Source: Bacteroidales bacterium
GTDB lineage: Bacteria; Bacteroidota; Bacteroidia; Bacteroidales; UBA4181
Assembly (NCBI GenBank): GCA_031549585.1
Contig: JAVBPN010000147.1
Span: forward strand, 1-43,733
Length of the DNA: 43,733 nt
Direction: 5' to 3'
Shown: positions 8,995 through 33,665 of the stretch, piece by piece
Layout: each line of letters starts with the position of its first letter
Position numbering within the stretch: the stretch's first letter is position 1
Notes under the pieces: generated by a model
Seen by the model: only the letters and a program-made list of their open reading frames with translations
Databases searched by the model: none
Told to the model about the DNA's origin: nothing
Made by a program: the position numbers and the translations under genes

Positions 8995-9152
8995 AGGATT
9001 GTCTAAAAAGCCAAAAACTATGGCTGAATTGCAAATTGCCTGCGGCGAACTCGCAAGCTCGGTTCAGCCAAACATAAGGATTTGTAATATAGTCGAATGG
9101 CGTTGAGCGGAATTTGTAATTCCGCTCGAAAACAGCTTTTTAGACAGCTCCT
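8995..9152. mobile_element. MITE-like element, cargo type 2 (inverted REP doublet), with a 25-nt micro-insertion at 9038-9062
   Basis: TIR core TGTCTAAAAAGC / GCTTTTTAGACA; REPs GGCTGAATTGCAAATT[insert]TTCAGCCAAAC and GTTGAGCGGAATTTGTAATTCCGCTC. Confidence 0.82.
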
Positions 9153-9188
9153 TTGTGCCGATCTGATAAGTGTCGATCAAAAAAGCCT

Positions 9189-10457
9189 TTAATTGAAGAA
9201 ATTGATTAGTAAGCGGATATTCAAATAAGTGACAATTGCGCCAATGATCAGCAATGTTCCGTTTAAAAGTTTGCCATTGGCGTGTTTTCCCATCAAATGT
9301 TTGTTAGAGGTCAGATAAATCTGTGAAAAAATAGTAATCGGTAATTGAATACTTAACATCATTTGCGAATACACCAAGCCCATGAAGGGGTTTTTGACAA
9401 ACATGATGATGACTAAGGCCAAGATTAAGGATATAGCCACACCCCATTTGGAGTGTTTGTCTTTAATGTCGTAAGGCTCTCCGAATATTCCCGCAAAAAT
9501 AGCTCCTCCGGCCATACCTGATGTCACGCTGGATGATATGCCTGCAAAAAGCAATGCAATAGCAAATACCAATCCGGCTCCTTTCCCTAACGTAGGCGTC
9601 AACATTTCCTGAGCTTGTTGTAGTTCATTGACAGGGATGGAATTGGCGTAAAAGGTAGATGCTGCCAACAGAATCATCGCGCTATTGATCGCCCAACCGA
9701 CTCCCATAGAAAAAATGGTGTCCACAAATTCAAATCGCAGTTGCTTTTTGATCACTTTTTCGTCTTGCAAATTCCCTTGACGGCTTTGGATAATCTCTGA
9801 GTGAAGAAAAAGATTATGGGGCATGACCACTGCACCCAACACACTCATGACGATCACGATAGAACCGTCTGGTATGGCGGGAGTGATCCAAGCCTTAACT
9901 GCTAAGTTCCATTCGATGGGTGCTAACATCAATTCATAGATAAATGAAAAGCCGATGATAGAAACAAAACCAATGATCCATCGTTCTATTTTCCGGTATG
10001 AATTGGTGATGATCATAACGATAATTAGAATTGTCACCATGATAGATCCGATTTTTACCGGAATACCGAATAACATCTGTAAAGCAATGGCTCCTCCCAA
10101 AATTTCGGCTAAGGATGTGGCCACAGAAGCCAGCATGGCAGTTCCCAGTACTCCACGTCCTAATTTGACGGGAAATCGTTCGGTAATTGCTTCGGATAAA
10201 CATTTGCCGGTGACAATGCCCAAGTGGGCTACATTGTGTTGTAAGATAATCAGCATTAATGTGGATAAAGTTACCATCCATAGCAAAGTGTAACCAAATT
10301 CGCTTCCGGCAGCTAAGTTGGAAGCCCAATTGCCGGGATCTATAAATCCTACGGTAACAAGCAACCCCGGCCCGATATATCTGAAAAAATCAAGGGATGG
10401 ATTGTCTTTCCCTTTTGCAAAACTTTTTTTGATTGATTTGATCAGATTGACTTTCAT
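9189..10457 (-). CDS. mntH: NRAMP family divalent metal (Mn2+/Fe2+) transporter
   Basis: GPGLLVTVGFIDPGNW and VVMPHNLFLHS signature motifs. Start moved to ATG 10457 because the TACATTTG promoter box (10462-10469) lies inside the longer ORF. Confidence 0.9.
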   Translation of the reverse strand: MKVNLIKSIKKSFAKGKDNPSLDFFRYIGPGLLVTVGFIDPGNWASNLAAGSEFGYTLLWMVTLSTLMLIILQHNVAHLGIVTGKCLSEAITERFPVKLGRGVLGTAMLASVATSLAEILGGAIALQMLFGIPVKIGSIMVTILIIVMIITNSYRKIERWIIGFVSIIGFSFIYELMLAPIEWNLAVKAWITPAIPDGSIVIVMSVLGAVVMPHNLFLHSEIIQSRQGNLQDEKVIKKQLRFEFVDTIFSMGVGWAINSAMILLAASTFYANSIPVNELQQAQEMLTPTLGKGAGLVFAIALLFAGISSSVTSGMAGGAIFAGIFGEPYDIKDKHSKWGVAISLILALVIIMFVKNPFMGLVYSQMMLSIQLPITIFSQIYLTSNKHLMGKHANGKLLNGTLLIIGAIVTYLNIRLLINFFN

Positions 10458-10543
10458 ATGACAAATGTAATGTTTTCGGATCAAAAAGCCTTTTGTTTTA
10501 TTTGCTGTAATCCGTGATGCATTTGGGAAAAGTACCTATTATG

Positions 10544-10684
10544 TATTTTGGCTAAAGCCTTTTTATATTGCACTCTTTGCCCGTTGGATAAATCCAACGG
10601 CAATGATAATGCAATTTTTCATTACCGTCTCGCTTTAGCGGACGGTTACAAATGCATTTAATATTGACGGCTTTAGCCAAAATA
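10544..10684. repeat. REPIN/MITE-like element of a separate family (GGCTAAAGCC type)
   Basis: Perfect 16-bp terminal IR TATTTTGGCTAAAGCC / GGCTTTAGCCAAAATA; internal hairpins CCGTTGGAT-aa-ATCCAACGG (10581-10600) and ACCGTC..GACGGT (about 10624-10646). Confidence 0.8.
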
Positions 10685-10760
10685 ACTCCTCGACGTATGG
10701 ACGAGTAATTAACGCTATTGAAACCATGAAAGTTCATGTGAATGATTCTATCAAACGGAA

Positions 10761-10884
10761 AAGGTGCTATTCAAAAAGTTTGAAGTCACGGCTGAATTGC
10801 AAATTCAGCCGAACGCGATCTTCTATATGCCACGTAAATAAGGTTGAGCGGAATTTGCAATTCCGCTTTTTTGAACGGTCTCTT
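10761..10884. mobile_element. MITE-like element, cargo type 2 (REP doublet), uninterrupted copy
   Basis: Degenerate TIRs GCTATTCAAAAAG / CTTTTTTGAACGGTC; intact GGCTGAATTGCAAATTCAGCCGAAC and GTTGAGCGGAATTTGCAATTCCGCT. Confidence 0.8.
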
Positions 10885-10902
10885 ATGTACTTGTCATAAA
10901 CA

Positions 10903-10933
10903 CAAAAGCCGACGTTTATAACGCCGGCTTTTG
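10903..10933 (-). terminator. Intrinsic terminator after the TonB receptor/lipoprotein operon
   Basis: CAAAAGCCGACGTT-tat-AACGCCGGCTTTTG stem about 35 nt downstream of the stop. Confidence 0.7.
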
Positions 10934-10966
10934 ATCAACCTAAACTATTTACCAAAAGACCTATTC

Positions 10967-12454
10967 TTAATAATCTGTATTTTGCGGGTCGAAATTAGTC
11001 CAACCTTTCATCCAGTTGTCAGTATCAGAATCACTGGCAAAAGCGCCAACGTACGATACTTTGTCAAATCCACTGCTTACTAAAGCATCAGTGAAATCAG
11101 CTGCGCCAAGAAGCGGGCTACCGGCAACAGGGCCCCAGTTTGGATCGGCTGCTAAGCTGTTGGGTTGCTTCAGCATCAAGCTGGAAATATCGTTAAAGTA
11201 TTGGTTATTCAAACCTTCGCTAAGGAAATAAGTGTGTGAAAACGATTGACCGCTTCCTTTGGTTTTACCATCGGTTGACAAAACATCATCCCAACTTTTG
11301 TTGATATCCGAACCAATAATAGTCATTCCAGCATAGAATACGTTTTTGATTTTGAGGCTTCCGTCGGTTGCCCATGTTTGTGTCGTACCTTTTTCATTGT
11401 CAAGCAATAAACCAACCGGATAACCAATTGCTATGGAATTGAAGCAGCTTAATTTAGAATTGCGGCGTATTTGCATAGCAGCTTGGAATGTACCTGTTTT
11501 CGATCCGTTTTGCGGGTTCAGGTTGCCAGCATTGATGTATGAAGAAGTGTTGGCGAAATCGTCAGCTTGCCCGATGGGGCCTACTATTGTTACGTTGCTG
11601 AATACGCTGGTTGTATAAGGAGTACTGGTTGATCCGTCAGAATTATTGTCTGATTCAAATCCATTTGAAAGTGACGTGTCGGCAATTCTCGGATGACGTA
11701 CGCCCAACAAAAATTGTAATTTTCCTGAGAATCCGTTGTCGGTATCGAAATCATCATCCCAGCCATGATATGCTACCAAATATTTTACATTGACTGAACC
11801 GCCGAACCATTCGAACGAATCGTCATTGCTGTATGAAACTTGCAAGTGGTCAACTTTAGTTCCACGTCCTACCGATCCAAAAGTGATACCATTGATTTCT
11901 TGATCCACATTGAAAGGGTATCCGGCAAATTCTACGCGAACATAGGTTAATTCTCCTGAGCTGTCATCATCATCGTTGCCACCATGCGTAGTGCGTGGGC
12001 CACCTTCGATAATCATTGCTCCCTTGTTATTCTTAGCGCGTCCGCAAAGGATCAATCCACCCCAATCTCCGGGTTTTCTTTGTCCTTTCGGTTGTTCGGA
12101 GGTAAACACAATCGGATTGGTTGCTGTTCCGCTGGCAACCAGTTTTCCTCCGGGCTCTACGACCAACGCTGCTTTGGTATCTTTGTCACCTTTAATGATT
12201 GTACCTGCTTCAATGGTTAATTTAGCACCATTGGTTACATATACCCAGCCTTTTAGCAAGTAAGTGCCTTTCGTCAATGTATGTTCGCCTTTGATTTCAA
12301 ATTCTTGCTCGCCATTTCCAATTACAGTGCCATCCTCAAAAAGGATTTGTTCTGTTTCCGTTTCCGGATTTTCATTGGTAGCATCATCTTTACATGCTAT
12401 GAGCGATAATAAGCTCACAAAGAATACAAAACTAAATAATCTAATTGTTTTCAT
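10967..12454 (-). CDS. Conserved beta-helix-type lipoprotein partner of a TonB-dependent receptor
   Basis: Lipobox LIAC-KDD; PIVFTSEQ, PGDWGGLILCG, YVRVEFAG, EINGITFGSVG, NDDSFEWFGG, DDDFDTDNG, WMKGWTNFDPQ. Confidence 0.85.
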   Translation of the reverse strand: MKTIRLFSFVFFVSLLSLIACKDDATNENPETETEQILFEDGTVIGNGEQEFEIKGEHTLTKGTYLLKGWVYVTNGAKLTIEAGTIIKGDKDTKAALVVEPGGKLVASGTATNPIVFTSEQPKGQRKPGDWGGLILCGRAKNNKGAMIIEGGPRTTHGGNDDDDSSGELTYVRVEFAGYPFNVDQEINGITFGSVGRGTKVDHLQVSYSNDDSFEWFGGSVNVKYLVAYHGWDDDFDTDNGFSGKLQFLLGVRHPRIADTSLSNGFESDNNSDGSTSTPYTTSVFSNVTIVGPIGQADDFANTSSYINAGNLNPQNGSKTGTFQAAMQIRRNSKLSCFNSIAIGYPVGLLLDNEKGTTQTWATDGSLKIKNVFYAGMTIIGSDINKSWDDVLSTDGKTKGSGQSFSHTYFLSEGLNNQYFNDISSLMLKQPNSLAADPNWGPVAGSPLLGAADFTDALVSSGFDKVSYVGAFASDSDTDNWMKGWTNFDPQNTDY

Positions 12455-12525
12455 TTTTAAAATATTGATTAATAATTATTTATATTTTTATTTGAATAAA
12501 TGGTAATTTCTATTTGTTATGAAAG

Positions 12526-15348
12526 TTAAAAGTTCATTTTTAATGCTATAGATATGTTTTGGCCGGGTTTGAACTTCTTAGTAGTCTGCTCGCGGGTTTG
12601 CAATTTTCCAGCATCATCGTAGAATTTGGGAAATTGTTTGAAGACTACATCTTGTGCCAAAATATCTTTTACGGAAGCGCTTATTTCGAAATGCTTGCCA
12701 ATCTTACGGCGCATAGTTAAATCGATTACATTGCGCGGCATTTCATACATATCAGGAATATCGTTGTTGATGTTTCCTCCGCTGCTGATGTCTACGCGCC
12801 CAATACCCACAATACGTTTTCCAATGATGTTGTAAAGCAATCCAAACATCCATTGATCTTTGTTGTCTTGGTAGAAAAGCCCTGCATTAACCAAGAACGG
12901 CGATTGCCCTTGCATGGGACGGTCGTGTTCCAAACTGCCTTCCTCGAATTGTACGTTACTACTAATGAGCGTGCCGTTCAGCGTTAAAGAAAGTTGTGGT
13001 ACACCAATAAAATCGAAGTTCTTTTTTACATCCAATTCTAACCCGTAGTTATTGGCTGACATGGCGTTTTCGAAAGTGTATGTATAGCTTCCGCCACCAT
13101 CGATGTATGTCCATTCAATAGGATTTGAAAATTTCTTATAGAAAGCGGCCAAGGAAATCAATTCGCCTGACGAAGGATAAAATTCATAACGTAAGTCAAA
13201 ATTCTGGATATAAGCCGGTTTCAGGTCAGGATTCCCTTTGATGGAACTGAATAAATCAAAATCGTAATAAACCGATGATGATACTTCGCGAAATTCCTGC
13301 CTATTGACTGATGCTCCATAAGCGAAACGCAACAAATGTTTGTCATTAAAATTGTAGGTGGCATTCACTGAGGAAAACAAGTCTGTTTGTACATAGTCTT
13401 TTTCGCGGGTAAGGTCGCCATAAATACTTGTATAATTGGTTACTGTCATATTATTGTTTTCAATACGCACGCCCGCATATACATTTAGTTTTTTAAGCGG
13501 GATATTCAATCCAACATATCCAGCATATAGTTCATCATTACCCATATAATTATTGCGGTTGTCGGTATCTTCATAAATATAAAGCTTGTCGGCGCTGTAA
13601 TTTTCCGGAATTAAGACACTTGTTACTGCGTCGAGGTATGAAAAATTGCTGGGTAAATTGTCTTCATTCCAACGGTAATAAAATGCCCTTGTATTGTATT
13701 TGCGATCACGACGTTCAGCATAAACACCCATTTTTAATGATGGATTGAAGTTGCCAAACTTAAAATTATGTGAATAATTAGCTGTTGCAGAAAGTATATT
13801 TTCATCCAATTTCAAGAAGTCACGTAAAATTTCGTTTTGGTCGGTTTGCATTTCTCCATAATGCTCATCACCTACAAAACCATTTTCTTCCAGATTAATG
13901 ATGCGGCGATCAGGTTGATTACGATTGGCATACGAATATCCAAATGTCCAATCAAGCTGATCTGCTGTAGATAATTTATGTACCCCTGCAAACTGTCCCG
14001 AATAGGCCAACCTGCTTGAATAAATATATTCCCGTTTGGCTTGTTGATAAAGTCCGCTCAAATATTGAAATCCTTCACGTTCGGTATAACGGTCGCGCCC
14101 CAATTGATTTACGATGTTGCGAAATTCTATACGGTGACGGTCATTTAACATATATGTCAGGTTAAGCATTCCTCCTACACGGGCATCAGTGGTATATTGG
14201 TTATCGGTGTAATCGTACAAGTATTCGGGTTGATCGGTCCGGGTGTTGTACACACCGTAACGGGCGTTCTTCATGCCTGTCAAAGTACGGTTTGCATATG
14301 TATAATTCAATGCCGTAATTAAGCCCCAACGTTTGGAGAAACGATGGTTAAGCATTACCGAAAAACGTTGGTCCGGAATAGGATATCGGCTACGAACCGT
14401 CCAATCATTATTAAATCCGGATTGAGTCATGGATGTTACTTGTGATGGGTTATTGTTGTTGAGCCGATCAACAGAGAAATTGGTATTGGTCAATGTTGGA
14501 ACGGATTTTAAGCTGCGTTTCCCATTGTCGAACCCCAAAAAATCGGTAGAGCTGCCATTATTGTATTTGAAATCATGAAATTGTGTTTCCGTATTGAAAT
14601 TGATCCCATAATTTATTTCTACCGAATTTTCCGATGGCATATTCTTGGTTGACAATTTGATAAATCCTCCGGTAAAGTCAGCAGGTAGTTCCGGTGCTGG
14701 CGACTTGACAATCATCACATTTTCGATTTGCGAACCCGGAATGATGTCAAATGAAAATGACCGGGTATCGGCTTCGGAACTAGGTACGGCACTATTGTTA
14801 ATCCATACATTGTTATAACGTTGAGATAATCCACGGGCAATCACAAATTTGTCGTCGATAATTGAAATTCCGGGAATTCGTTTGATCACTTCCGATGCAT
14901 TGCGGTCTTGAGCCTTTGTAATCTGTTGTGATGATACGCCACTCATCACTACCGATGCCGATTTCATGGCATTGATTACTTGAGCTTCTGAATTCACTTT
15001 ACGTACAGCGGTTACTACTACTTCGTCAATACCTAAAGAAGCTTCTTCCATTGCTACGTTGGCACTTGCAGATTTCCCCGCCTCTACGTTTACATCTGTC
15101 ACTTCTACTGTGTTATAGGAAATGAATGAATATTTTACCGTATATTTACCCGGTGGTACTTTCAAGCTGTAATCTCCATCAATTCCGGTAATAGTACCTG
15201 TTGATAACGATTCGATAATCACATTGGCTCCGGTAATTGGTGTACCTGTTGACTTTTCAACAATAGTTCCTCGTATTTCACCTGTTTGTGCTGTTACATA
15301 ATGTGCAACGATCAGGAGTACAATACATATAAATAACTTTTTGATCAT
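12526..15348 (-). CDS. TonB-dependent receptor (non-SusC type, with N-terminal CarboxypepD_reg-like domain)
   Basis: Signal peptide from ATG 15348 (MIKKLFICIVLL); plug IKRIPGISI..RGLSQRYN, PELPADFTGG; GNPDLKPAYIQNFDLRYEFY; RPMQGQSPF; terminal Phe. Confidence 0.93.
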   Translation of the reverse strand: MIKKLFICIVLLIVAHYVTAQTGEIRGTIVEKSTGTPITGANVIIESLSTGTITGIDGDYSLKVPPGKYTVKYSFISYNTVEVTDVNVEAGKSASANVAMEEASLGIDEVVVTAVRKVNSEAQVINAMKSASVVMSGVSSQQITKAQDRNASEVIKRIPGISIIDDKFVIARGLSQRYNNVWINNSAVPSSEADTRSFSFDIIPGSQIENVMIVKSPAPELPADFTGGFIKLSTKNMPSENSVEINYGINFNTETQFHDFKYNNGSSTDFLGFDNGKRSLKSVPTLTNTNFSVDRLNNNNPSQVTSMTQSGFNNDWTVRSRYPIPDQRFSVMLNHRFSKRWGLITALNYTYANRTLTGMKNARYGVYNTRTDQPEYLYDYTDNQYTTDARVGGMLNLTYMLNDRHRIEFRNIVNQLGRDRYTEREGFQYLSGLYQQAKREYIYSSRLAYSGQFAGVHKLSTADQLDWTFGYSYANRNQPDRRIINLEENGFVGDEHYGEMQTDQNEILRDFLKLDENILSATANYSHNFKFGNFNPSLKMGVYAERRDRKYNTRAFYYRWNEDNLPSNFSYLDAVTSVLIPENYSADKLYIYEDTDNRNNYMGNDELYAGYVGLNIPLKKLNVYAGVRIENNNMTVTNYTSIYGDLTREKDYVQTDLFSSVNATYNFNDKHLLRFAYGASVNRQEFREVSSSVYYDFDLFSSIKGNPDLKPAYIQNFDLRYEFYPSSGELISLAAFYKKFSNPIEWTYIDGGGSYTYTFENAMSANNYGLELDVKKNFDFIGVPQLSLTLNGTLISSNVQFEEGSLEHDRPMQGQSPFLVNAGLFYQDNKDQWMFGLLYNIIGKRIVGIGRVDISSGGNINNDIPDMYEMPRNVIDLTMRRKIGKHFEISASVKDILAQDVVFKQFPKFYDDAGKLQTREQTTKKFKPGQNISIALKMNF

Positions 15349-15372
15349 ATAGGATATTAAAATTTTACATGA

Positions 15373-15450
15373 CAAAGGAATCTTGATCATGTTAACCGAT
15401 TGTTGCTGTTTGTTTATGTTTCAGTGAATAAATTGTTAAGAGAACGTTAA
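15373..15450 (-). promoter_or_regulatory. Degenerate -7 box (TTCCTTTG, 15373-15380) with 11-bp-phased TTAAC repeats (PhoB/OmpR-type box)
   Basis: On the plus strand, GTTAA-like pentamers start at 15391, 15402, 15412 (one base off phase), 15424, 15435 and 15446. Confidence 0.65.
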
Positions 15451-15588
15451 GTGATCAATTTAAGGTTTAAAATTTCAAATCTCAAGCTGTTGATTTTGAT
15501 CGTTTTATGATTATGTTTCGCATTTATAATATTTGCCTCTTATTACTGTTGTTATATAATTATTACGTTTGCATTAAATTTATTGATA

Positions 15589-16629: not shown

Positions 16630-16635
16630 TCTAAC

Positions 16636-16788
16636 GAAACTGTTCAAAAAGCTATAAGTTATGGCTGAATTACAAATTCAGCCAAACGCTATTTTCTGTA
16701 AAACAGTTTGACAACGTTGATCGGAATTTGCAATTATTGCATGAGGGCTTCGCCGTTCCGATCAAAAACAAACTCTTTGAACAGTTTC
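16636..16788. mobile_element. MITE-like element, cargo type 2 (REP doublet), with a 20-nt micro-insertion at 16736-16755
   Basis: Perfect 13-bp TIR GAAACTGTTCAAA / TTTGAACAGTTTC; REPs GGCTGAATTACAAATTCAGCCAAAC and GTTGATCGGAATTTGCAATT[insert]TTCCGATC; lies between convergent genes. Confidence 0.85.
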
Positions 16789-16803
16789 TTGTGGAACTTA
16801 GTT

Positions 16804-24337: not shown

Positions 24338-24558
24338 TTGTTTATTTTCAATTTTTTAAGATCATAATCTGTTCACCCGTCGTTATCAATCAATTGACCA
24401 TATACCAACAAGCAAATATTTATTTTTGTTCCCAATAGAATCTGCTAATGTTATGAAAAAGATGAAAGTATGGTTGGATCATCATTACTCATGCACAAAC
24501 AAAGGTATTGGTTTATATGTTGCATAAATGAAAACATCCAACTAATAAATTGAAAGCG

Positions 24559-25011
24559 ATGAAAATCTTATTTACATGGACCATAGTTATATTGCTTTGT
24601 TCCAGCTTAAATGCTCAGGACAATAACATTCAGAATCTTTTGAACGATTATTTACAGATAAAGAATGCTTTGGTAGACAGTAATGGTAAAAAAGCAAGGG
24701 AATATGCACAAAATATGCAAGCTGCCCTCAAGAATACGCCTAATATCAGCGGACAAAAGAGCATGCTGAAAACGGTTGGAGAAATTAGCAAAACCACAGA
24801 TATTGAAAAACAACGAAAAGCATTTGCCGATTTATCTGAGCCAATGTGGAATTTGGTTAAAAATACGGAAGATCTGACCCAAGATGTTTATTACCAATAT
24901 TGTCCTATGAAAAAAGCGTATTGGATCAGCGCAGAAGAAGCCATTAGAAACCCATATTATGGTTCTCAAATGTTGACTTGCGGCAGTGTAAAAGAAACCA
25001 AGAAAAAGTGA
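24559..25011 (+). CDS. DUF3347 domain heavy-metal-associated exported protein
   Basis: YLQIKNALV, IEKQRKAFADLS, YYQYCPM, WIS..IRNPYYGSQMLTCGSV. Confidence 0.9.
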   Translation: MKILFTWTIVILLCSSLNAQDNNIQNLLNDYLQIKNALVDSNGKKAREYAQNMQAALKNTPNISGQKSMLKTVGEISKTTDIEKQRKAFADLSEPMWNLVKNTEDLTQDVYYQYCPMKKAYWISAEEAIRNPYYGSQMLTCGSVKETKKK

Positions 25012-25014
25012 CGC

Positions 25015-27234
25015 TTAATATGTCACAACGATACCTCCGCCCCAACCCATATCGCTGTCATAATTTCCGGCAACCGAAATGTATTTGGTCAGTATGTAGC
25101 GCATATCGAAACGGTATTCCCAATCGGTGTTGACAGACATGTCCAAACGTAAGCGCGAAGTGAGGGCAATATCTTTACGGCTCATCTTCAATCTTACGTT
25201 TCCTTCAATGTCAGCTTGTAAATCGGCTACAATCAGCAAAGGCAATGTGTAGGCCACACCAAACATCAGCGTATTCCGGTTATTATCCGTATGCATGGAT
25301 TGATAATGATAATCCCATGCCACATAAGGAAATAGATATTGCATTTTTCCCAAATATCTTCCAAAGCGGACGGTCGCCATGTAACCATGCTCATCGTCCC
25401 AACCTGTGTGCCAGTCAGCGCCAAGCGCATAACGGGTATTGGCAAGCATTGCTTCGCCATGAGTGCCGTTGCTTGCTACTCCAACATGAAACATTGGGTG
25501 AATTTCCCGATCATCGCTTAAAAATTTACGATTGGCTTTTTTCGGATCAGGAATATCTGGATTGGGGGGCGAATCTTCATATGTGAACACGCGCCCCATG
25601 CCACTCATCATGTGATATAAAATATGGCAATGAAAAAACCAGTCACCGTTTTCGGTTGCTGCAAACTCTAATGTGTCGGTTTCCATCGGCATGATGTCTA
25701 CCACATTTTTTAATGGGGCATAATCGTCCTGACCGTTTAACACGCGGAAGAAATGACCATGCAGGTGCATCGGATGGCGCATCATACTGTTGTTGTATAT
25801 GATGATACGCACATTTTCTCCTTGCCGGATTAAAATGCGGTCGGTTTCAGAAATCACTTTGTTGTCCAATGACCAAACATAACGATTCATATTGCCTTCC
25901 AGCTTAAAATGCAATTCTTTCCAAGGTGAATCTGGCAATGTTGTTTTGACAGGCGAGCGTAACATGCCATAGTTGAGCGTAACAATTTCCTCCGATCCTT
26001 GCGGCATATTCATTCCTTCGTGATGTGCATGATTTTCTTTATTTTCTCCTTTTTGTAGTTCGGGATACATCACTACATTCATATCCATTTTCTGGACACT
26101 CATGTTCATACCCATATCATCCATATCACCGTTCATTTTCATCATGCCATTCATCATTTTCATGCCGGCAAAATAGTTGAGTTTAGGCAGGTCGGGTGCA
26201 GGCATTTTCATTCCTTTGCCTAACCACAAAGAAGTATACTTGGTCCGGTCTTCGGCTGTAGCACGAAATTCGTAATTCATATGGTCGGGAATAGATACAA
26301 TCACATCATACGTTTCTGCCACACCGATAATCATCCGGTCAACATCCACGGGTACGACATCCATCCCATCATTGGAGATTACTGATATCTTGCCACCGGC
26401 GAATTGCAGCCAAAAGTAAGTGGATGACGAACCATTGATGATACGCAAACGTATTTTTTCACCGGGTTGCAATTGCGAAAATTCTGTTTCCTGTTTCCCG
26501 TTTGTAAGCATGGCATCGTAATAAACGTCACTCACATCCATTGCATGCATCCGTTTCCATTCATTGACGATCTTTACACCCAAATTACCGGATGTGAGGG
26601 CTTCCCAATAATTCTGTGTAGATTCTTTTTTGATCATATACCAATCATTGGCTGCGCGTAAACTATGGTGGACTTCTGCCGGACGTTCGTTGGTCCAATC
26701 GCTCAATAACAAGACATATTCCTTCACCGGCGGTTCATTACGCTTGTGGATAATTAAACTGCCATACATTCCGCTTTGTTCCTGTAGTTTGGTATGTGAG
26801 TGATACCAATATGTCCCGCTTTGTACAAGGGGAAATTTATAAATTGCTGTTTCGCCTGCTTCAATCGGTGCAGTGGTTAAGTAAGGTACACCGTCCATAC
26901 GGTTTGGCAATATTAAACCATGCCAGTGAAGGGATGTTTCAGTTTTCAGTTGATTATGCACATGTATTTCGGCAGTATCGCCCTCAGTAAAATGTAATGC
27001 CGGACCAGGAATTTGCCCATTGATGGCAAGGGCTTTTTTCTCCTTTCCTGTATAATTGACTGTTGTATCTGAAATATACAAATGATAGATAACTGTCTTA
27101 GCGACATTTGTCTGTTTGATTGATGAAGTATTGTCCCGGTTAGTGGTTTCTTTATCCCGAAATTCATAACCATGCCTGGCCATGCTGTAAAAACAGCCGG
27201 AAAGTAATAAGGCTATGAATATCATTTTTCTCAT
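25015..27234 (-). CDS. Multicopper oxidase (CopA/PcoA-like) with Met-rich linker and C-terminal extension
   Basis: Four Cu motifs: HWHG, WYHSH, HPMHLHGH, HCHILYHM; Met-rich insert MKMMNGMMKMNGDMDDMGMNM. Confidence 0.93.
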   Translation of the reverse strand: MRKMIFIALLLSGCFYSMARHGYEFRDKETTNRDNTSSIKQTNVAKTVIYHLYISDTTVNYTGKEKKALAINGQIPGPALHFTEGDTAEIHVHNQLKTETSLHWHGLILPNRMDGVPYLTTAPIEAGETAIYKFPLVQSGTYWYHSHTKLQEQSGMYGSLIIHKRNEPPVKEYVLLLSDWTNERPAEVHHSLRAANDWYMIKKESTQNYWEALTSGNLGVKIVNEWKRMHAMDVSDVYYDAMLTNGKQETEFSQLQPGEKIRLRIINGSSSTYFWLQFAGGKISVISNDGMDVVPVDVDRMIIGVAETYDVIVSIPDHMNYEFRATAEDRTKYTSLWLGKGMKMPAPDLPKLNYFAGMKMMNGMMKMNGDMDDMGMNMSVQKMDMNVVMYPELQKGENKENHAHHEGMNMPQGSEEIVTLNYGMLRSPVKTTLPDSPWKELHFKLEGNMNRYVWSLDNKVISETDRILIRQGENVRIIIYNNSMMRHPMHLHGHFFRVLNGQDDYAPLKNVVDIMPMETDTLEFAATENGDWFFHCHILYHMMSGMGRVFTYEDSPPNPDIPDPKKANRKFLSDDREIHPMFHVGVASNGTHGEAMLANTRYALGADWHTGWDDEHGYMATVRFGRYLGKMQYLFPYVAWDYHYQSMHTDNNRNTLMFGVAYTLPLLIVADLQADIEGNVRLKMSRKDIALTSRLRLDMSVNTDWEYRFDMRYILTKYISVAGNYDSDMGWGGGIVVTY

Positions 27235-27835
27235 GTGGTCATCATTTGCGTCAGCCTTTGTCGAATCAATCGATCAATGGGTTTTTATAGCTCCATATCT
27301 GATGGCTCCATGATGAGATACTTTCTTTCACATGAAACTACAATTAAATAAGGCCATCCATACATTAACAGGAAACATTAGTTTTTGTTTTTGTAAGAAA
27401 TAATTATTTGGTGCGTATCATGGCTTCTGCCATGTGGCAAGCGGGTTTGTATATATACTGTTTATTCATACAATAAACAGTATTGTATTCTACCGTGTTT
27501 AATAGTTAAAAGATATTTGGTAAAAAGGAAAACTGTCAGTCAACACAACAATAATACAGACAAAATAAGATTGGCAACATTTAAACTCTCTATATACAAA
27601 CCGTTTTTCAGCCATAACTGGGAAACGGTTTCCCTATTAGAACATTTGTAATGTTAATCATAAGATATTATGGCCATGATATTTATTGCCTTTTTAGTTT
27701 GTATTGTACTACAAACATAATGAAAGGATGATTTCATATAAATATAACTTTTCTGTAACGATGTCGAAACATCCATCCGGTAAGTTTGTAAAAATTCAAT
27801 AAAACAACAGATAACCACATAAAATTCATAAAAAC

Positions 27836-29065
27836 ATGAAATATACAATCGGGCAATTCAACGAATGTTTTCCCCCTATTATGGATGGAGTATCGCTTAC
27901 TGTCCGTAATTATGCCCATATATTAAACCGGACAATGGGTGATACCTATATGGTTACGCCTTCTTTTCCGGGATATATTGATCAAGAGGATTTTCCTGTA
28001 TTGCGTTATACTTCCATGCCTATTCCTATGCGGAAACCTTATCGTATGGGTATGCCATGGCTCGATCTTAACTTTCATCATCAAATAAATCATATTCCAT
28101 TTGATCTATTGCATTGTCATTCACCTTTTTCAGCAGGACGTTATGCTTTGCACATAGCACGTAAAAGAGGTATTCCCATAGTAGCCACTTTTCATTCAAA
28201 ATATCGCGAAGACTTCTTGCGGGCAGTGCATCACCCTGCCGTCGTAAGAATGATGATTCGGCGTGTAGTAGATTTTTATTCGGCAGTAGATGAAGTGTGG
28301 ATACCGCAGCCTGCTGTAGAGAGCACTTTACGCGAATATGGATTTAAAGGCCGTGTGACTGTGGTGGGAAATGGAACAGATTTTATTGACGGGAAATCGG
28401 TAGATATTTTACGGCGGGATGCCCGGAAAATGTTGGGACAAAGCGTTGACAAACCTATTTTTCTTTTCGTAGGGCAACTAATCTTGGAAAAGAATCTCCC
28501 ATTGATCATCGAGACATTGGGCAATTTGCGTGATCTGGATTTCACGGCGTACTTTGTGGGACAAGGTTATGCTGCCGAACAACTCAAAGTGCTTGCCGAG
28601 CAGCAGGGAATTGCAGAAAAAATATATTTTACCGGTACGATTCATGATCGGCAGATATTGAAACAATATTATGCGGCAGCCGATTTGTTTCTCTTTCCTT
28701 CTTTATATGATAACGCACCATTGGTGGTACGTGAAGCTGCAGCACTGCAAACGCCATCGTTGCTTGTCAAAGGGTCCACTGCCGCAGAAGTCATTTGTGA
28801 CGGAGTGAACGGTTTCTTAACAGAAAACAAAAAAGAAGTGATGGCGGAGAAAATTCGCAGTATAATGGTTGATCAAAAACTGAGGCAAACTGTAGGCGTA
28901 GCTGCTTCAAAAACTATCGCACAACCTTGGGAAGAAATCATCGACACAGTCAAGCAACGTTACATCAACATCATGCAACGGAAAAAACGGGAATTGTCAC
29001 ATAAACAAGATCGCCCAAATTGGCTCGAAAAAATATGGCCAGAACCGGTGATTGAAATGATTTGA
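27836..29065 (+). CDS. GT4 family glycosyltransferase (diacylglycerol glucosyltransferase-like)
   Basis: FPPIMDGVS, HCHSPFSAG, VATFHSKY, DLFLFPSLYDNAPLVVREAAA. Confidence 0.9.
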   Translation: MKYTIGQFNECFPPIMDGVSLTVRNYAHILNRTMGDTYMVTPSFPGYIDQEDFPVLRYTSMPIPMRKPYRMGMPWLDLNFHHQINHIPFDLLHCHSPFSAGRYALHIARKRGIPIVATFHSKYREDFLRAVHHPAVVRMMIRRVVDFYSAVDEVWIPQPAVESTLREYGFKGRVTVVGNGTDFIDGKSVDILRRDARKMLGQSVDKPIFLFVGQLILEKNLPLIIETLGNLRDLDFTAYFVGQGYAAEQLKVLAEQQGIAEKIYFTGTIHDRQILKQYYAAADLFLFPSLYDNAPLVVREAAALQTPSLLVKGSTAAEVICDGVNGFLTENKKEVMAEKIRSIMVDQKLRQTVGVAASKTIAQPWEEIIDTVKQRYINIMQRKKRELSHKQDRPNWLEKIWPEPVIEMI

Positions 29066-29121
29066 CATACATTTTACTACCAATTTTGCTATGCCCCAAA
29101 ACTATGTGCTATGTATCTAAC

Positions 29122-29158
29122 AAAAAAGCCGATATGCAAATATTAGCATACCGGCTTT
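29122..29158. terminator. Intrinsic terminator between convergent GT4 and DUF3332 genes
   Basis: AAAGCCGATATGC..GCATACCGGCTTT stem with an A6 tract on the left (U-tract for the minus strand). Confidence 0.75.
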
Positions 29159-29179
29159 CAACCTATAAAAACTTATACA

Positions 29180-29725
29180 TCACTTAAATGCTACGAGATT
29201 TATTTGATCAACAGCCTGACGGAAAGCAAGCACTCCGGCTTCGCTCAAAGGAACGTTCATTTCTTTACCATTAGCAAGATAGACAACTGCATTGTCTTCA
29301 TCCACCACTTTCAGTAGTTTAGCGGATATGTCTTTTGTAACAACACTCCAAGTATTTGATTCATCACAAACAAGACTGATTTCATCACCTGTACTGTTTT
29401 GAATTTTGTACCCATTTTCAAGGGCTTCCACCATGAAAATATCTTTCTCTCCCTTAATTGTTTTTATTTCACCTGCTGCAACAGGGTTGTTTCCCGACCA
29501 AAATTCAATGGAATTCAATACGATTCCATCAACAAACATGGTCACTTCGTAAACGGGAATAACAACCATTGCAAAGAATACCAATTCATTGACAAATTTA
29601 CTCCCAACGGACTTATTCCATCCATACAGTTTATTGGTCAAACCAAAAGAACCAATACAAGAGGTAAATAATACACTTCCTAAAATCACAGTTGCCATAA
29701 TAACTGCTACAGACCTTTTTTTCAT
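29180..29725 (-). CDS. DUF3332 family lipoprotein
   Basis: FTSC-IGSFGLTNKLYGWN, KFVNELVF, VLNSIEFWSGNNP; TATTTTTG box at 29763-29770. Confidence 0.88.
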   Translation of the reverse strand: MKKRSVAVIMATVILGSVLFTSCIGSFGLTNKLYGWNKSVGSKFVNELVFFAMVVIPVYEVTMFVDGIVLNSIEFWSGNNPVAAGEIKTIKGEKDIFMVEALENGYKIQNSTGDEISLVCDESNTWSVVTKDISAKLLKVVDEDNAVVYLANGKEMNVPLSEAGVLAFRQAVDQINLVAFK

Positions 29726-29989
29726 GTTTGATTATTTTTAAAGTTTATAATTCTACAACAATCAAAAATACAAAAAGGGATTAGTAATGATCGGATTTTT
29801 GTGAAAATTGATGAATAGTGGCTGATTATCAGTGGAATAAATTTAAGATCATTCGTTCTGAGGAGTCAATTCATAATTGTAGAGACAATACTAAAATTTT
29901 TGAGAAACTTTAAAATGAACTCGCGATTTTGTAATATTCTGAATTTTAATGTGATTGTTTGATAGTCATAACCTCATTGTAAAGGGTTA

Positions 29990-30053
29990 AACTAAATTTT
30001 TAGAAATAAATTTAAAAAATTAGTTCATAATTTAATTTTTTAGTTTATGTTTG
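29990..30053 (+). promoter_or_regulatory. Three 20-bp-phased operator-like palindromes plus -7 box (TATGTTTG, 30046-30053) upstream of the BlaI gene
   Basis: AACTAAATTTTTAGAA (29990), ATTTAAAAAATTAGTT (30010), ATTTAATTTTTTAGTT (30030); consensus AACTAA-N4-TTAGTT. Confidence 0.6.
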
Positions 30054-30149
30054 CAATAAAATATTCTTGGGATTTTCTTGACAAAAATATTGATGCTGTA
30101 GATAATGATTGATAGAGGCAGAATAAAAATGAATAATAAAGAAAAAGAA

Positions 30150-30518
30150 ATGAATAAAGTATTAACCAAAGCCGAAGAACAAGTAATGCAAACATTATGG
30201 AAGTTGCGACGTGCCGGACTTCGCGAGATTACCGAATCTATGCCCGCACCGCAACCTCACACTAGCACGGTCGCTACCAGGTTGAAAATACTGACCGATA
30301 AAGATTTTGTCAGTATAGAAGTGCTCGGAAGGATGCACTTTTATGCGCCAACCATTAGTAAAGAAGAATATTCTGACCAACTCATTGCAGGAATCGCTCA
30401 TTCATATTTTGATGGTTCATTCAGCAAAGTAATATCCCAGATGGTAAAAAATCAGAATGTAAGTATTGACGATCTGGAATTACTTGTCAAGCAATTGAAA
30501 AAGAAAAATAAACTATAA
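30150..30518 (+). CDS. BlaI/MecI/CopY family transcriptional repressor
   Basis: LTKAEEQVMQTLW, PHTSTVATRLKILTDKDFV, YFDGSF. Alternative starts at 30105 and 30129. The stop overlaps the next ATG (TAATG). Confidence 0.93.
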   Translation: MNKVLTKAEEQVMQTLWKLRRAGLREITESMPAPQPHTSTVATRLKILTDKDFVSIEVLGRMHFYAPTISKEEYSDQLIAGIAHSYFDGSFSKVISQMVKNQNVSIDDLELLVKQLKKKNKL

Positions 30519-31918
30519 TGGCTATATTATTTTACTTCCTCAAAGTCATTATTTGTTCCGCATTGTTTGCGGGATGTTATTGGTTCGTTTTACGCAACGA
30601 ACGTTTTCATCATTGGAATCGATTTTTTATCTTGGGTTCTGTAGTCTTGTCTGTGGTGATTCCGCTACTGAATATCCCGGTTGCGACATCGAATATAATT
30701 GTCTTACCACCGGCATATTATATCGCCAATGCGGCCATTGACCCTGTTAATGTAGGGGATGTATCTATTGCATCTTCCCTTCTTTGGCAATGGTTGTTGT
30801 TGGCGGCCTGTTTGTTAATCGCCCTCTTCTTTATTGTAAGGGAAACGATTTCTATTATTCGCATTGTAAGGCTAAAACGTAAATCTCAACAGGTTTGCAT
30901 AGCCGGAGCCAATGTGTTTTACACGGATGATGAAACTGCACCATTTACCTTTTTCCGAACGATATTTTGGAAAAAGGAGATTCCTTTTGATTCCAGCGAA
31001 GGCCAATGTATGCTTCGGCATGAGCTAGCACATGTTCACTTCGGCCATAGTTGGGATAAAGCTTTAATGCAGCTTGTTTGCTGTATTTTTTGGATGAATC
31101 CTTTTTTCTTGTTGTTACGTCGTGAATTGGAATTGGTGCATGAATTTGCGGCCGACCATGAAAGTATTGAAAAAGGCAATATTAAAGAGCTTTCATCCTT
31201 GATTTTATACAGATTATATCCTAATTATCGGACTGATTTTACCAGTCATTTTTTTCAATCACCTATTAAAAGAAGAATTGTCATGATTACCGATAACAAA
31301 AAAACACAGAGGGGATTATTACGCAAAATAAGCGTAGTGCCCGTAGTAATTATTTCATTATATCTATTTTCCATAAAAACAGAAGCTCGAGTGGTTACCT
31401 TGCCGGCATCAACAGAAAATACTGTTAAGACTTATTCCGTTGAAGCACCTGTACAGAGCGAGAGCTTTACGTCCGATATGAACGGAACAGAAAACAGACG
31501 GGTAGTAGGAATCCAGACTACAGAAACGGCTTTGCCTACAACATCTAACAGTCAAACGGACACAATAAAAGATGTTTCCAACAATGAACAAGTTTTTATT
31601 ATGGGAGAAGTAGAAAATATGCCCCAATTTAATGGGCAGCCTGCCGAACAAGGATTTAGACGTTATGTAGCCGAAAGTATGGTATACCCTGGTGAAGCTC
31701 AGGACAAGGGAATCGATGGAATTGTAGTGGCGGAATTTATTATCAAAAAAGATGGTTCATTGGATAATTTAAAAATCGTCAGTTCTGTTGATCCTCTTTT
31801 GGATAATGAAGTTTTACGAGTTATTTCAGCTTCACCCAAATGGACACCTGGTAAACATAAGGGAAATAATGTTGTGGTTAAATTGACTTTTCCGGTAGTA
31901 TTCAAGATTAGCCATTAG
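30518..31918 (+). CDS. M56 family (BlaR1-like) metallopeptidase fused to a TonB C-terminal domain
   Basis: HWNRFFIL, APFTFF, RHELAHV (HExxH), FWMNPF, HEFAAD; C-terminal YPGEAQDKGIDGIVVAEFII..KWTPG..FPVVF. Confidence 0.92.
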   Translation: MAILFYFLKVIICSALFAGCYWFVLRNERFHHWNRFFILGSVVLSVVIPLLNIPVATSNIIVLPPAYYIANAAIDPVNVGDVSIASSLLWQWLLLAACLLIALFFIVRETISIIRIVRLKRKSQQVCIAGANVFYTDDETAPFTFFRTIFWKKEIPFDSSEGQCMLRHELAHVHFGHSWDKALMQLVCCIFWMNPFFLLLRRELELVHEFAADHESIEKGNIKELSSLILYRLYPNYRTDFTSHFFQSPIKRRIVMITDNKKTQRGLLRKISVVPVVIISLYLFSIKTEARVVTLPASTENTVKTYSVEAPVQSESFTSDMNGTENRRVVGIQTTETALPTTSNSQTDTIKDVSNNEQVFIMGEVENMPQFNGQPAEQGFRRYVAESMVYPGEAQDKGIDGIVVAEFIIKKDGSLDNLKIVSSVDPLLDNEVLRVISASPKWTPGKHKGNNVVVKLTFPVVFKISH

Positions 31919-31973
31919 TCGTTTTTCAGTCTGGTCTATTTTTAGTAAAAAGCTGGGTGTCAAAAAGTATGGT

Positions 31974-32120
31974 ATAGTACAAAGGGAAATTAACGAAGGT
32001 AAATCTTGGTTTAACATCCGCAGTCAAAAACCATGTAATGAATGTGTTTATCAATGGCTTTGTCCACCGCCGTCAAACTATGAAATAGCCATGTACAAAA
32101 AGGTACACCATTCGAAATGA
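31974..32120 (+). pseudogene. C-terminal remnant resembling the pseudo-rSAM/SPASM protein of the GG-Bacteroidales peptide-modification system (TIGR04150-like)
   Basis: Manual translation IVQREINEGKSWFNIRSQKPCNECVYQWLCPPPSNYEIAM... with CxxCxYxWLCPxPSNYE; there is no room for the rest of the gene upstream. Confidence 0.7.
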
Positions 32121-32136
32121 TTATGGTAAAATCCTC

Positions 32137-32232
32137 CTCTGACAGGCCCGCCTGAACGACTTAGTCGGGCAGGGTCTATTGACCTCTGTCAGGGAGTGCA
32201 TGCCCTGTCAGCGGTCGCAGAACCTGACAGAG
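32137..32232. repeat. REP pair (CTGACAG..CTGTCAG type) with a nested 27-nt palindrome at 32147-32173
   Basis: CTCTGACAGG[CCCGCCTGAACGACTTAGTCGGGCAGG]GTCTATTGACCTCTGTCAGGG, then CTGTCAG..CTGACAG (about 32203-32232). Confidence 0.7.
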
Positions 32233-32346
32233 ACAAATCGAAATCTTAAAATAAATACAAATGAAATGTCCATGTACGAATATGCACCAACCGTAATGAT
32301 TATTAATGGACATTCCATGTGGCCTTAAAAAACAAATTATAATCAC

Positions 32347-33525
32347 ATGAAAAAGATATATTTTTTATTAGCGATTTTGTTGCTTTCACAGTGTAAGAAT
32401 AGTAGCAACAAGTTAGGAACAGATGATTTGGTGGAAATAGATATTTCAAAAGGATATCCTGAAAGAAAGCTATATATTCAAGATGTTGCAAAAATTGAAT
32501 ATATCCCGTTGGAGACCAACAATAATGCTTTAATGAAACTACAAACCACGGGGATTGTTCATGTTTCTGATAATTATATAGTTGCTGTAAGTTATCGCGA
32601 TGGTTATGTTTTTGTTTTCGACGGTAAAGGAAATTTTAAATATAGTTTCAATCATGTCGGCAAAGGACCAACCGAGTATGTGAACATTGGCAGTATTGTA
32701 TTTGATGAACAAGCAAAGGAAATATATATTTTTCAAGCGTATGTGGCTTTACCCAAATTTCTTGTATATTCTGAAACCGGCGAATTTAAAAGAATACTTG
32801 ATTGTCCTCCAAATTTAAAACCAGTGGATATGTACAATTTTGATCATTCCACGCTTCTTGTTTATGATGGATATGGACTGGAGACAAATACATCTTCAAG
32901 TAAACCGTATATGTTTATATCCAAAAATGATGGGCGTATTGATACACTGGACTTATATTTTCCGGACAGAATCTCACACTTAATGAAGATTGAAATGGAA
33001 ATCGAGGGGAAAAAACGTCTTATGACTTTTGGATTGCCCGATGTAAATAATCGGTCTTATGGGAAGAATTTCCTGATTGCAGAAAGATCTTCCGATACCA
33101 TTTACAGGTTAACTACACAAAAGAAACTACAACCCTTGATTGTTCGGAAACCTCCGGTACATGATTCGTATCCTCCTACAATAATAACCAATCACTTAAT
33201 CACAGACAGGTTTATATTTTTTGGTACAAGGTACTTGGATTTGGAGGCAGCAAAAAAAGGAAAAGCTCCCAGCACGGAAGAGTTAATGTATGATTTCGAG
33301 ACCGGCGAATTGAATGAACGCAAACTGGGGAATAAGGATTGCGAGGATTTAAGATTTTTCTTTTTTGATGCAAGAACTGCTGAAAATACGGGCGTTGGCC
33401 TCATTGATGTTCCAAGGTTATTCGAGTTGGACAGGGAGGGCAAAGTAAAAGGAGAATTGAAAGAACTCCTGAAGACACTTGATGAAGAGGACAACCCTAT
33501 TTTGTTGAAAATTACGTTTATATAA
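32347..33525 (+). CDS. 6-bladed beta-propeller lipoprotein (DUF4934/DUF5128-like)
   Basis: Lipobox LSQC; IEYIPLETN, VFDGKGNF, GKGPTEY and C-terminal LDEEDNPIL. Confidence 0.88.
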   Translation: MKKIYFLLAILLLSQCKNSSNKLGTDDLVEIDISKGYPERKLYIQDVAKIEYIPLETNNNALMKLQTTGIVHVSDNYIVAVSYRDGYVFVFDGKGNFKYSFNHVGKGPTEYVNIGSIVFDEQAKEIYIFQAYVALPKFLVYSETGEFKRILDCPPNLKPVDMYNFDHSTLLVYDGYGLETNTSSSKPYMFISKNDGRIDTLDLYFPDRISHLMKIEMEIEGKKRLMTFGLPDVNNRSYGKNFLIAERSSDTIYRLTTQKKLQPLIVRKPPVHDSYPPTIITNHLITDRFIFFGTRYLDLEAAKKGKAPSTEELMYDFETGELNERKLGNKDCEDLRFFFFDARTAENTGVGLIDVPRLFELDREGKVKGELKELLKTLDEEDNPILLKITFI

Positions 33526-33529
33526 AAAA

Positions 33530-33665
33530 CAAATTATTTGCAGTGAGCTTGTAAACTCGTTCCGTTCAACGTCGCCTATTTGTAATACATGTACTTACGT
33601 TTGATTAAATGTGCAATTAGCTTTGCTGAGCTGCGGTTCAGCCGCGGAGTAGCTTTTACAACCTC
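33530..33665. mobile_element. Degenerate, inverted and left-truncated copy of the cargo-type-2 MITE with two micro-insertions (33536-33559, 33619-33636)
   Basis: CAAATT[ins]TTCCGTTCAAC ... GTTTGATTAAATGTGCAATT[ins]TTCAGCC; TIR-like end GCTTTTACAACCTC. Confidence 0.7.

Follow-up and report, generated by a model that had tools for sequence, protein, structure and literature searches.

The stretch of DNA considered here (the window: 43,733 nt, the entire contig C8, JAVBPN010000147.1, of the Bacteroidales bacterium UBA4181 assembly GCA_031549585.1) carries four copies of a ~135-nt palindromic element, and within the hairpins of this element lie four very small inserts, hereafter modules. The assembly comprises 403 contigs and 4.24 Mb with 39% G+C, and is 90.6% complete and 6.8% contaminated. 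From the letters of the window alone, the original prediction had proposed that the inserts may be miniature mobile elements, targeted to the stems of repetitive extragenic palindromic (REP) hairpins by an enzyme encoded elsewhere and all facing the same way along the chromosome. The inserts at 9038-9062, 16736-16755, 33536-33559 and 33619-33636 match that description letter for letter, each with AATT before it and TT and C(A/C)G after it, and they occupy four different arms of the host, because the host copy at 33521-33665 is inverted (Table 1).

Table 1. Features of the window (contig C8), module types, and candidate enzyme genes elsewhere in the genome. TIR-L and TIR-R, left and right terminal inverted repeats; R1 and R2, inner hairpins of the host element; RAYT, REP-associated tyrosine transposase.
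Feature	Position	Strand	Description
Host copy 1	8995..9152	+	TIR-L ~8995-9012, TIR-R ~9133-9151; aligns with 37 other copies of the genome
Host copy 1, R1	9022..9069	+	GGCTGAATT-GCA-AATT^CAGCC, interrupted in 3' arm; uninterrupted counterpart 10790-10810
Module, type D	9038..9064	+	25 nt + terminal TT; GCC-TGC-GGC mini-hairpin, GA, second hairpin ACTCGCAAGCTC, GG-TT
Host copy 1, R2	9105..9127	+	GAGCGGAATT-TGT-AATTCCGCTC, uninterrupted
Host copy 2	10763..10882	+	Both hairpins empty (R1 10790-10810, R2 10846-10867); reference empty site
Host copy 3	16636..16790	+	R1 16663-16683 empty; R2 16719-16763 interrupted in 3' arm
Module, type C	16736..16757	+	20 nt + TT; ATTGCA, TGAG, mini-hairpin GGC-TTC-GCC, G-TT
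Host copy 4	33521..33665	-	Inverted, decayed, both hairpins filled
Module, type E	33536..33561	+	24 nt + TT; ATT-TGC-AGT (wobble pair), GAGCT-TGTA-AACTC, G-TT; sole copy in genome
Module, type A	33619..33638	+	18 nt + TT; AGC-TTT-GCT mini-hairpin, GAGCT, GCGG-TT; no full second hairpin
Type A			AGCTTCGCT-GAGCT-TYGG; 14 copies
Type B			GCCTGCGGC-GAGCT-AAAGG; 12 copies
Type C			ATTGCATGAG-GGCTTCGCC-G; 11 copies
Type D			9038 form; 3 copies
Type E			33536 form; 1 copy
Type F			GGCTTCGCC-GAGCTCGTAAACTCGG; 7 copies
RAYT-like genes	C283:1138-1416, C283:3629-4192, C311:13268-13756		L062, L067, L069; one full-length (188 aa), two truncated
IS200-like Y1 genes	C361:4889-5347, C96:8107-8556, C372:26684-27027		Y---Q--HH motif of subclass 1.2; C372 in two frames
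Hairpins flanking C361 Y1 gene			ATCCCTTTAGGGAT
Hairpins flanking C96 Y1 gene			GAATCC-GAA-GGATTC, GACTCC-GAA-GGAGTC
Hairpins flanking C372 Y1 gene			CAGGGCGTTGCCCTG, GGCC-GAA-GGCC

The inserts are housed in the two inner, REP-like hairpins of the palindromic element, R1 (GGCTGAATT-ACA-AATTCAGCC) and R2 (GTTGAGCGGAATT-TGC-AATTCCGCTC), the element itself being bounded by terminal inverted repeats (GAGGCTGTnCAAAAAG ... CTTTTTGnACAGCCTC) that are mutually reverse-complementary and covary across copies (GTGC/GCAC, GTTC/GAAC, GTCTC/GAGAC, GTCTA/TAGAC). A BLAST search with 15 fully empty copies as query placed the element at 48 loci in this genome, 38 of them at least 75 nt long. Between copies the pairwise difference is 0.06 in R1 and 0.11 in R2 against 0.37 in the spacer and 0.34-0.42 at the ends. 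R1 and R2 match at 17 of 21 positions and are inverted relative to their tags, the conserved word that adjoins both of them, (C)GTT(G/C), facing the spacer; neither of the REP tags GTAG and CGTC was found at the foot of the host hairpins. These GAATT-type hairpins are short, extragenic, multi-copy palindromes, and R2 resembles the hairpins beside this genome's own RAYT-type genes on contigs C283 and C311. REP is a fair name for the host hairpins, and the whole unit is a palindrome resembling either a REP doublet forming a hairpin (REPIN) or one of the miniature inverted-repeat transposable elements (MITEs). The fourth window copy adjoins the stop codon of the open reading frame (ORF) at 32347-33525; the 5' arms of both its hairpins are no longer complementary, and its terminal inverted repeats are remnants.

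That the interruptions share a single point holds for the genome as a whole. A strict 21-nt hairpin consensus was split at each position from 5 to 17, with 10-35 extra bases required, and interruptions appeared only at splits 14-16 (equivalent to 5-7 read from the other strand), with none at splits 8-13 in this genome. The tally of filled and empty sites came to 30 interrupted hairpins against ~70 uninterrupted (141 intact strand-records, each hairpin being read on both strands); two of the 30 (C12:2618, C195:2706) look like chance matches, which leaves 28.

The modules of this genome number 48, all of them intergenic, 16-27 nt long and ORF-less. The layout proposed from the four window inserts (mini-hairpin, GA(G/A), second part, G) proves to be real at the level of the family, whose members run TT, a 9-nt mini-hairpin with a 3-bp stem and a 3-nt loop, GAG, a second short hairpin or its remnant, and (G)G-TT. 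A generic pattern built on this layout (TT, a 3+3+3 hairpin closed by C:G, a GAG-like word, 2-13 nt, GG/CG/AG, TT) matched 48 times in this genome and 16 times in the reversed genome, and uncovered more variants, some with a compensatory second hairpin such as GGGTT-CGCA-AACCC. The type D module at 9038, for which blastn-short returned an identical copy at C304:11136, is the nearest of the four to a canonical family member, with one mismatch to the canonical 18-mer core (GAGCTCGCAAGCTCGGTT). Types C and E start with six bases complementary to the preceding six (TGCAAT-T-ATTGCA and GCAAAT-T-ATTTGC), which hints at a possible variant-specific pairing with the target. Under a standard DNA model, the four inserts of the window fold with ordinary energies (z = -0.7 to +0.5), and the filled R1 hairpin scores -1.4 / -1.9; as that model has no special triloop terms, these values are uninformative. 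No Rfam family reached the gathering score in the window, and four module-rich loci searched with E up to 1 gave one chance-level match, unrelated to the modules.

An exact scan for the 18-mer core, with one genome per species, returned at least 123 stretches, and 72 distinct instances from many genomes could be compared among the matches listed. Within these 72, a TT stands immediately before the 9-mer in 49, the mini-hairpin is fully paired in 45 and both hold in 44, so that the left TT is present in 44 of the 45 instances with a paired mini-hairpin. The claim that the mini-hairpins are GNA-triloops on the opposite strand is borne out, 42 of the 45 having a TNC loop closed by C:G, that is C-GNA-G. 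The stem covaries: 61 cells were changed on both sides, compared with 22.7 +/- 4.3 after shuffling (none of 500 shuffles as high) and 0-23 with slid partners, and its middle pair is AU in 22, CG in 20, GC in 10 and UA in 4. The second hairpin also has compensatory variants (GGGCT..AGCCC, GGGTT..AACCC). Long variants bear a hairpin near each end, the second one 4 nt from the 3' end, and short variants lack the second; unlike a classical MITE, the module has no terminal inverted repeats. Its terminal TT is either the element's own end or a 2-bp duplication, the two being indistinguishable by sequence.

The other 28 of the 72 listed instances lack TT and mini-hairpin and come mostly from Sphingobacteriaceae and Pedobacter. 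Here conserved words, GGTGTTCAA or TTATTTCAT for example, precede the core, which often lies within a longer hairpin (records L096, L097, L108, L111, L114, L118, L128, L134, L139 and others, from Sphingobacterium, Pedobacter and Parapedobacter). The 3' half of type C (CATGAGGGCTTCGCCGTT) likewise appears in another repeat of this genome, beside GCCTATCGGG words (C354:3908, C273:1176, C145:1572, C370:20999), with CGTT on both flanks in some copies.

The family extends well beyond this genome. The canonical core was scanned for in 15 genomes of the genus (at most 2 mismatches) and in 301 sampled genomes of the order (at most 1 mismatch), with the reversed pattern as control; it was found in nine of the former, at 50, 28, 19, 12, 8, 7, 3, 3 and 1 copies, and in 19 of the latter, at 1-79 copies, against 0-1 matches for the controls. 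In a phylum sample of 401 high-quality genomes (at least 95% complete) it occurred in four, this genome included. These counts cover the canonical core only, an 18-mer that misses types A, B and C, and are a lower bound: this genome scores two copies by that measure against a total of at least 48 modules, and the family must accordingly be larger than such figures suggest. Among the matches listed, exact cores come from Bacteroidales, Rikenellaceae, Sphingobacterium, Pedobacter, Parapedobacter, Fluviicola, Brumimicrobium and Cytophagales, cultured Sphingobacterium and Pedobacter among them, and from one Melioribacteraceae and one Calditrichia record. The distribution across Bacteroidota is patchy and bursty. 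Hosts within the genus are varied, always with a TT to the left of the module: runs of TTCAAAA or AAGTTT heptamers, TTCAGTTA octamers, the loops of terminator-like hairpins and the loops of RAYT-type REPs. The proposed targeting of REP stems was right in naming one defined point of hairpin repeats and too narrow in naming REPs alone: modules sit at a TT of short-period repeats and of many kinds of hairpin, in the loop or where the top of the stem is AT-rich.

A second composite repeat in this genome consists of three hairpins, GAGCGGCAAATGTTTTGCCGCTC, TGGTGAATTTWAAATTCACC and CATCGGCATT-ACA-AATGCCGATG (for example C209:2620-2790, C150:7400-7570 and C181:11150-11340), with a chimeric left flank in two copies (C109, C187). 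Each of its last two hairpins is either empty or filled with a module, and the loop of its GGCATT-T^GY-AATGCC hairpin holds at least six variants of 16-32 nt.

Evidence that the modules entered pre-existing hairpins comes from empty sites, from the hosts and from tandems. A host hairpin in record L137 lacks exactly the 27 nt carried by its homologues L090, L127 and L129 (three copies in a second genome), the empty site reading ...CGTGTTT^GTGATTG... and the rest of the host being alignable. Among 28 neighbouring R1/R2 pairs of this genome, contents assort freely: 15 are empty/empty, five A/empty, three empty/C, one A/C, one D/C, one D/empty and two other. With the inserts removed by script, hosts differ from one another by 0.29 on average, and carriers of type A (0.28, n=10, p=0.25) or type C (0.31, n=6, p=0.81) are as diverse; the nearest neighbours of carriers are carriers no oftener than chance, and type A sits on at least four covarying subtypes of terminal inverted repeat. 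Carriers do not make up a host subfamily. Three identical 27-mers stand head to tail in a Bacteroidales metagenome-assembled genome (MAG) record (L144, 121-192), two different variants stand side by side in L107 and L055, many module pairs are spaced exactly 27 nt apart and clusters of two or three variants also occur; a module that ends in GGTT offers the next one a TT. One insertion point, a conserved hairpin architecture, unrelated hosts and clean controls together support the view that these are separate secondary elements and not chance indels. Between eight module pairs lying 0.15-3 kb apart no autonomous copy was found, the genes there being ordinary ones such as ATP synthase subunits and permeases, and since no gene lies inside the modules any enzyme must act in trans.

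The best-supported reading, to which we assign a probability of about 0.55, is that the inserts are independent, ORF-less mini-elements of 16-27 nt that were inserted secondarily into hairpin repeats, and they probably count as some of the smallest mobile DNA on record. Their point of entry would be directly behind a TT, either in the loop of an existing hairpin repeat or at its AT-rich and easily melted top. They may be, or have been, mobile but non-autonomous, with single-stranded hairpin DNA as the form that is moved in trans and pasted 3' of the TT. The terminal TT would then be the element's own end, with which each inserted copy would recreate its target, and this would explain the head-to-tail tandems. 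A HUH/Y1 transposase is a candidate for the enzyme that could move them.

A number of observations, on enzymes, strand and sites, weigh against this reading. Neither co-occurrence nor locus inspection found an enzyme. This genome has eight PF01797 matches, namely three IS200-like genes (the one on C372 in two pieces), three RAYT-like genes and one fragment, the RAYT class being assigned from the Pfam match and from motifs read in the translation. The full-length RAYT-like protein carries NHIH and YIHQNP; motifs NH[LIV]H and YIH[QN]NP are listed for subclass 2.6, which is described as mostly from Bacteroidetes and flanked by 'atypical secondary structures' (PMC6006769). In the 90.6% complete assembly the hairpins beside the RAYT-like genes, two of them on C283 and one on C311, are of a related GCGGCAAT / CCGGATT kind and not of the GAATT type. 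A module is nearby in 2 of 15 RAYT loci within the stretch retrieved. Across the order, RAYT-2.6-like genes occur in 10 of 19 module-positive and 76 of 282 other genomes (Fisher p 0.03, kinship ignored), and subclass-1.2-like genes in 14 of 19 and 159 of 282 (Fisher p 0.16); two module-bearing genomes, G056 (26 modules, 94% complete) and G146 (4 modules, 99%), have no PF01797 match above the cut-off. As a separate observation, the hairpin directly after the C311 RAYT-like gene holds a type F module in its loop.

A more ambitious and distinctly tentative version is that the modules are the smallest active bacterial transposons seen: single-stranded 'peel-and-paste' elements of 16-27 nt, with an ultra-stable C-GNA-G mini-hairpin and a GAG word, which a Y1/HUH enzyme would move in trans and paste after TT at exposed loops. 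REPs, terminators, heptamer arrays and the ends of IS200 would all be parasitised in this way, and the modules would pass from one class of Bacteroidota to another. Subclasses 1.2 and 2.6 would be the candidate enzymes, because their own flanking hairpins have the same C-GAA-G loops; the loops beside the C96 and C372 genes resemble the other strand of the mini-hairpin, which is a lead and not a test. Anatomy agrees with a HUH enzyme, since the modules have hairpins at their ends, lack inverted repeats, enter loops and have a fixed word on their left; beyond this the idea is unsupported.

With regard to strand, the modules follow no consistent rule. The claim of a single orientation is true of the four window copies, all on the + strand (p = 0.125, two-sided), and fails genome-wide, where 25 copies lie on + and 23 on - and, of nine pairs of neighbours that share a composite host, six have their members on opposing strands; the shared direction in the window is most likely coincidence. 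Types A and C occur together within one host element four times. Pairs on the same contig at least 200 nt apart are alike in six of six cases (p = 0.03), a small residual signal without explanation. Relative to flanking tandem genes, modules of this genome are antisense in 15 cases and sense in 11 (p = 0.56). In G319, a long-read relative with 59 copies (those less than 60 nt apart merged by hand before loci were counted), 19 of 26 adjacent loci agree (p = 0.03), 14 of 17 modules between tandem genes lie antisense to them and the sign of GC skew is matched in 13 of 20; gene direction is tracked better than skew, and orientation thus seems to depend on the host element and on the direction of the genes. 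On a 2.56-Mb scaffold of Sphingobacterium (G323), seven copies listed show four strand switches, and none of the 401 phylum genomes is a closed genome with many copies, single copies alone being found. The host element itself is mostly antisense in tandem-gene contexts, as judged from type A (sense in 5 of 7) and type C (antisense in 5 of 6).

The sites occupied are the third difficulty. All 14 type A modules occupy one arm of R1-type hairpins, the 3' arm on the side of the tag (two of the hosts being decayed), 10 of 11 type C modules lie in R2 and the other in a GGTGGAATT variant hairpin, and two of three type D modules lie in the other arm of R1, with one in a variant hairpin. This confinement, despite an identical AATT^C in all four arms, is not predicted by free transposition and suggests either that each variant has its own target or that short tracts are copied from one host copy to another. 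Conservation of the inserts does not exceed that of the host hairpins, and the uniformity of the inserts therefore does not prove them young. At the sites in the window itself, one public run, metagenome contigs and relatives showed no polymorphism for presence or absence: the sole public run that holds the stretch, maybe the source sample, gave contigs without a joint at 16736, 33536 and 33619; metagenome contigs gave no match to the 23-mer ending at the first insertion site; and a flanking gene recurs at 75-78% identity in four genomes in which neighbour gene and spacer differ, so that no orthologous site is readable. In some genomes modules are clearly carried along by larger repeats. One case is G126, where a module lies within a multi-copy, assembly-breaking unit, ~120 nt upstream of the unit's Y1 transposase gene, which is subclass-1.2-like; the homologous leader in this genome (C372) has no module.

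Arm-specific variants, the passenger in the IS200-like unit of G126, the joint recurrence of module and host in G319 and G002 and the lack of polymorphism at the window sites would all be expected if the inserts had been acquired very few times and were now passive parts of their hosts, spread with them or by gene conversion or template switching. We consider this rather improbable, as carriers are unclustered among hosts and sit on several subtypes of terminal repeat, the same module occurs in many unrelated hosts across the phylum, at least six variants share one loop site and mixed tandems exist; every new host family needs at least one true insertion.

Selection for a structural signal in hairpin loops that benefits the cell, for example a hairpin that stabilises RNA or guides its processing, or a DNA site to which a protein binds, is unlikely. 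The compensatory change that maintains the mini-hairpin, an 18-mer core identical across classes among the matches listed, the intergenic position of all copies here and the antisense bias in G319 would suit it, but the very patchy occurrence (19/301, 4/401) with bursts of 26-79 copies, the even gene orientation in this genome and the lack of an Rfam match do not, and tandem and nested copies fit selfish spread better. It is just as doubtful that the modules are excision footprints or the collapsed remnants of a larger TT-inserting element, left by internal deletions that kept both ends, and that the mini-hairpin derives from one end of that element and the second hairpin from the other is no likelier. 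The two-part architecture with a hairpin at each end, the short variants without a second hairpin, the core instances that lack the mini-hairpin in other contexts and the C-GAA-G hairpins flanking Y1 transposase genes here can be read in this way; no gene-bearing copy lay between the eight inspected module pairs, however, modules have no terminal inverted repeats, and footprints would not copy with compensatory changes or form exact 27-nt tandems. Chance indels were set aside in view of the same point, the same layout and controls of 0-1, CRISPR-like arrays in view of the lack of regular spacing, and self-cleaving ribozymes in view of shortness and the lack of an Rfam match.

What was originally observed holds true and reaches far beyond the window. 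The core sequence was not found in papers, and papers on Bacteroidetes repeats, on REPs and RAYTs and on small mobile repeats (supplements aside) gave no description of the module. The closest counterparts already described are cyanobacterial, the small dispersed repeats (SDR) found in Nostocaceae, which Elhai et al. 2008 reportedly presented as 'very small mobile repeated elements'. SDR are ~21-27 nt long and lie in hairpin contexts. Like the modules, they lack ORFs, are very short and dispersed, are regarded as mobile, and insert at defined short sites and inside other repeats; the modules share their size class and lack of ORFs at 48 copies here and up to 79 elsewhere, as well as precise presence or absence at homologous sites (the 27 nt of L137, and paralogous empty and filled hairpins in this genome). 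According to one paper, HIP1 may serve as an insertion site for SDR5, and SDR were not found beyond the Nostocaceae (PMC5861425). The modules, in contrast, belong to Bacteroidota, with single Melioribacteraceae and Calditrichia records and a core common across classes; their target is a TT in hairpin loops, they combine a covarying triloop mini-hairpin with GAG and a second hairpin, and their sequence probably differs.

Other small or hairpin-associated systems are more distant. The hosts resemble the REP/REPIN-RAYT system in being short extragenic hairpins in inverted pairs, akin to those flanking this genome's RAYT genes, whereas the modules are smaller (a 9-nt hairpin), lie inside REP loops or arms instead of beside genes and are not a regular flank of RAYT genes, and the 5' tag of the hosts is (C)GTT and not GTAG or CGTC. 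An earlier paper notes REPs located within other palindromes (PMC3733652). With IS200/IS605 elements and their gene-less derivatives, the palindrome-associated transposable elements (PATEs), the modules share asymmetric ends, a hairpin near each end, the absence of terminal inverted repeats, and probably insertion beside a short fixed word in one orientation relative to it; a trans-acting HUH enzyme and single-stranded targets would fit insertion into loops. Known gene-less derivatives of these elements measure ~100 nt or more, against 16-27 nt for the modules. Furthermore, nothing separates the module hairpin from the left end, a search for a cognate transposase with module ends was negative, some module genomes have no Y1 transposase and no replication-strand bias was shown. 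Chytrid and other fungal mitochondrial double-hairpin elements and yeast mitochondrial GC clusters are tens of nt long, with one or two GC-rich hairpins, and insert in AT-rich spacers and other repeats, their mobility being inferred from presence and absence; they are organellar and probably unrelated to the modules in sequence. Insertion sequences such as IS1397 and others are said by Tobes and Pareja 2006 to target REPs. For these too REP hairpins are the preferred targets, but they are full-size, gene-bearing and equipped with DDE or other transposases, whereas the modules are tiny and gene-less. The terminal inverted repeats of a classical MITE are present in the ~135-nt host and absent from the module.

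Should the modules move on their own, they would set the lower size limit of a mobile element at ~16-27 nt and would mean that one repeat can live inside another, the hairpins of repeats having parasites of their own. Simple and defined by sequence, the modules are a handy substrate with which to look for the enzyme, and the presence of the core in cultured Sphingobacterium and Pedobacter makes the spread of very small repeats testable at the bench. As they alter hairpins after genes, they may affect termination and mRNA stability. Even as mere passengers, they would be useful anatomy of an undescribed Bacteroidota repeat family. In the long-read MAG G319 a hairpin element with two modules 51 nt apart recurs between tandem genes (L210-L229), and its homologue in another genome, L137, has the first module only. 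Modules also break short-read assemblies: many lie 20-170 nt from contig ends (G321, G126; L231-L235, L240-L245) and so sit in the repeats at which such assemblies break.

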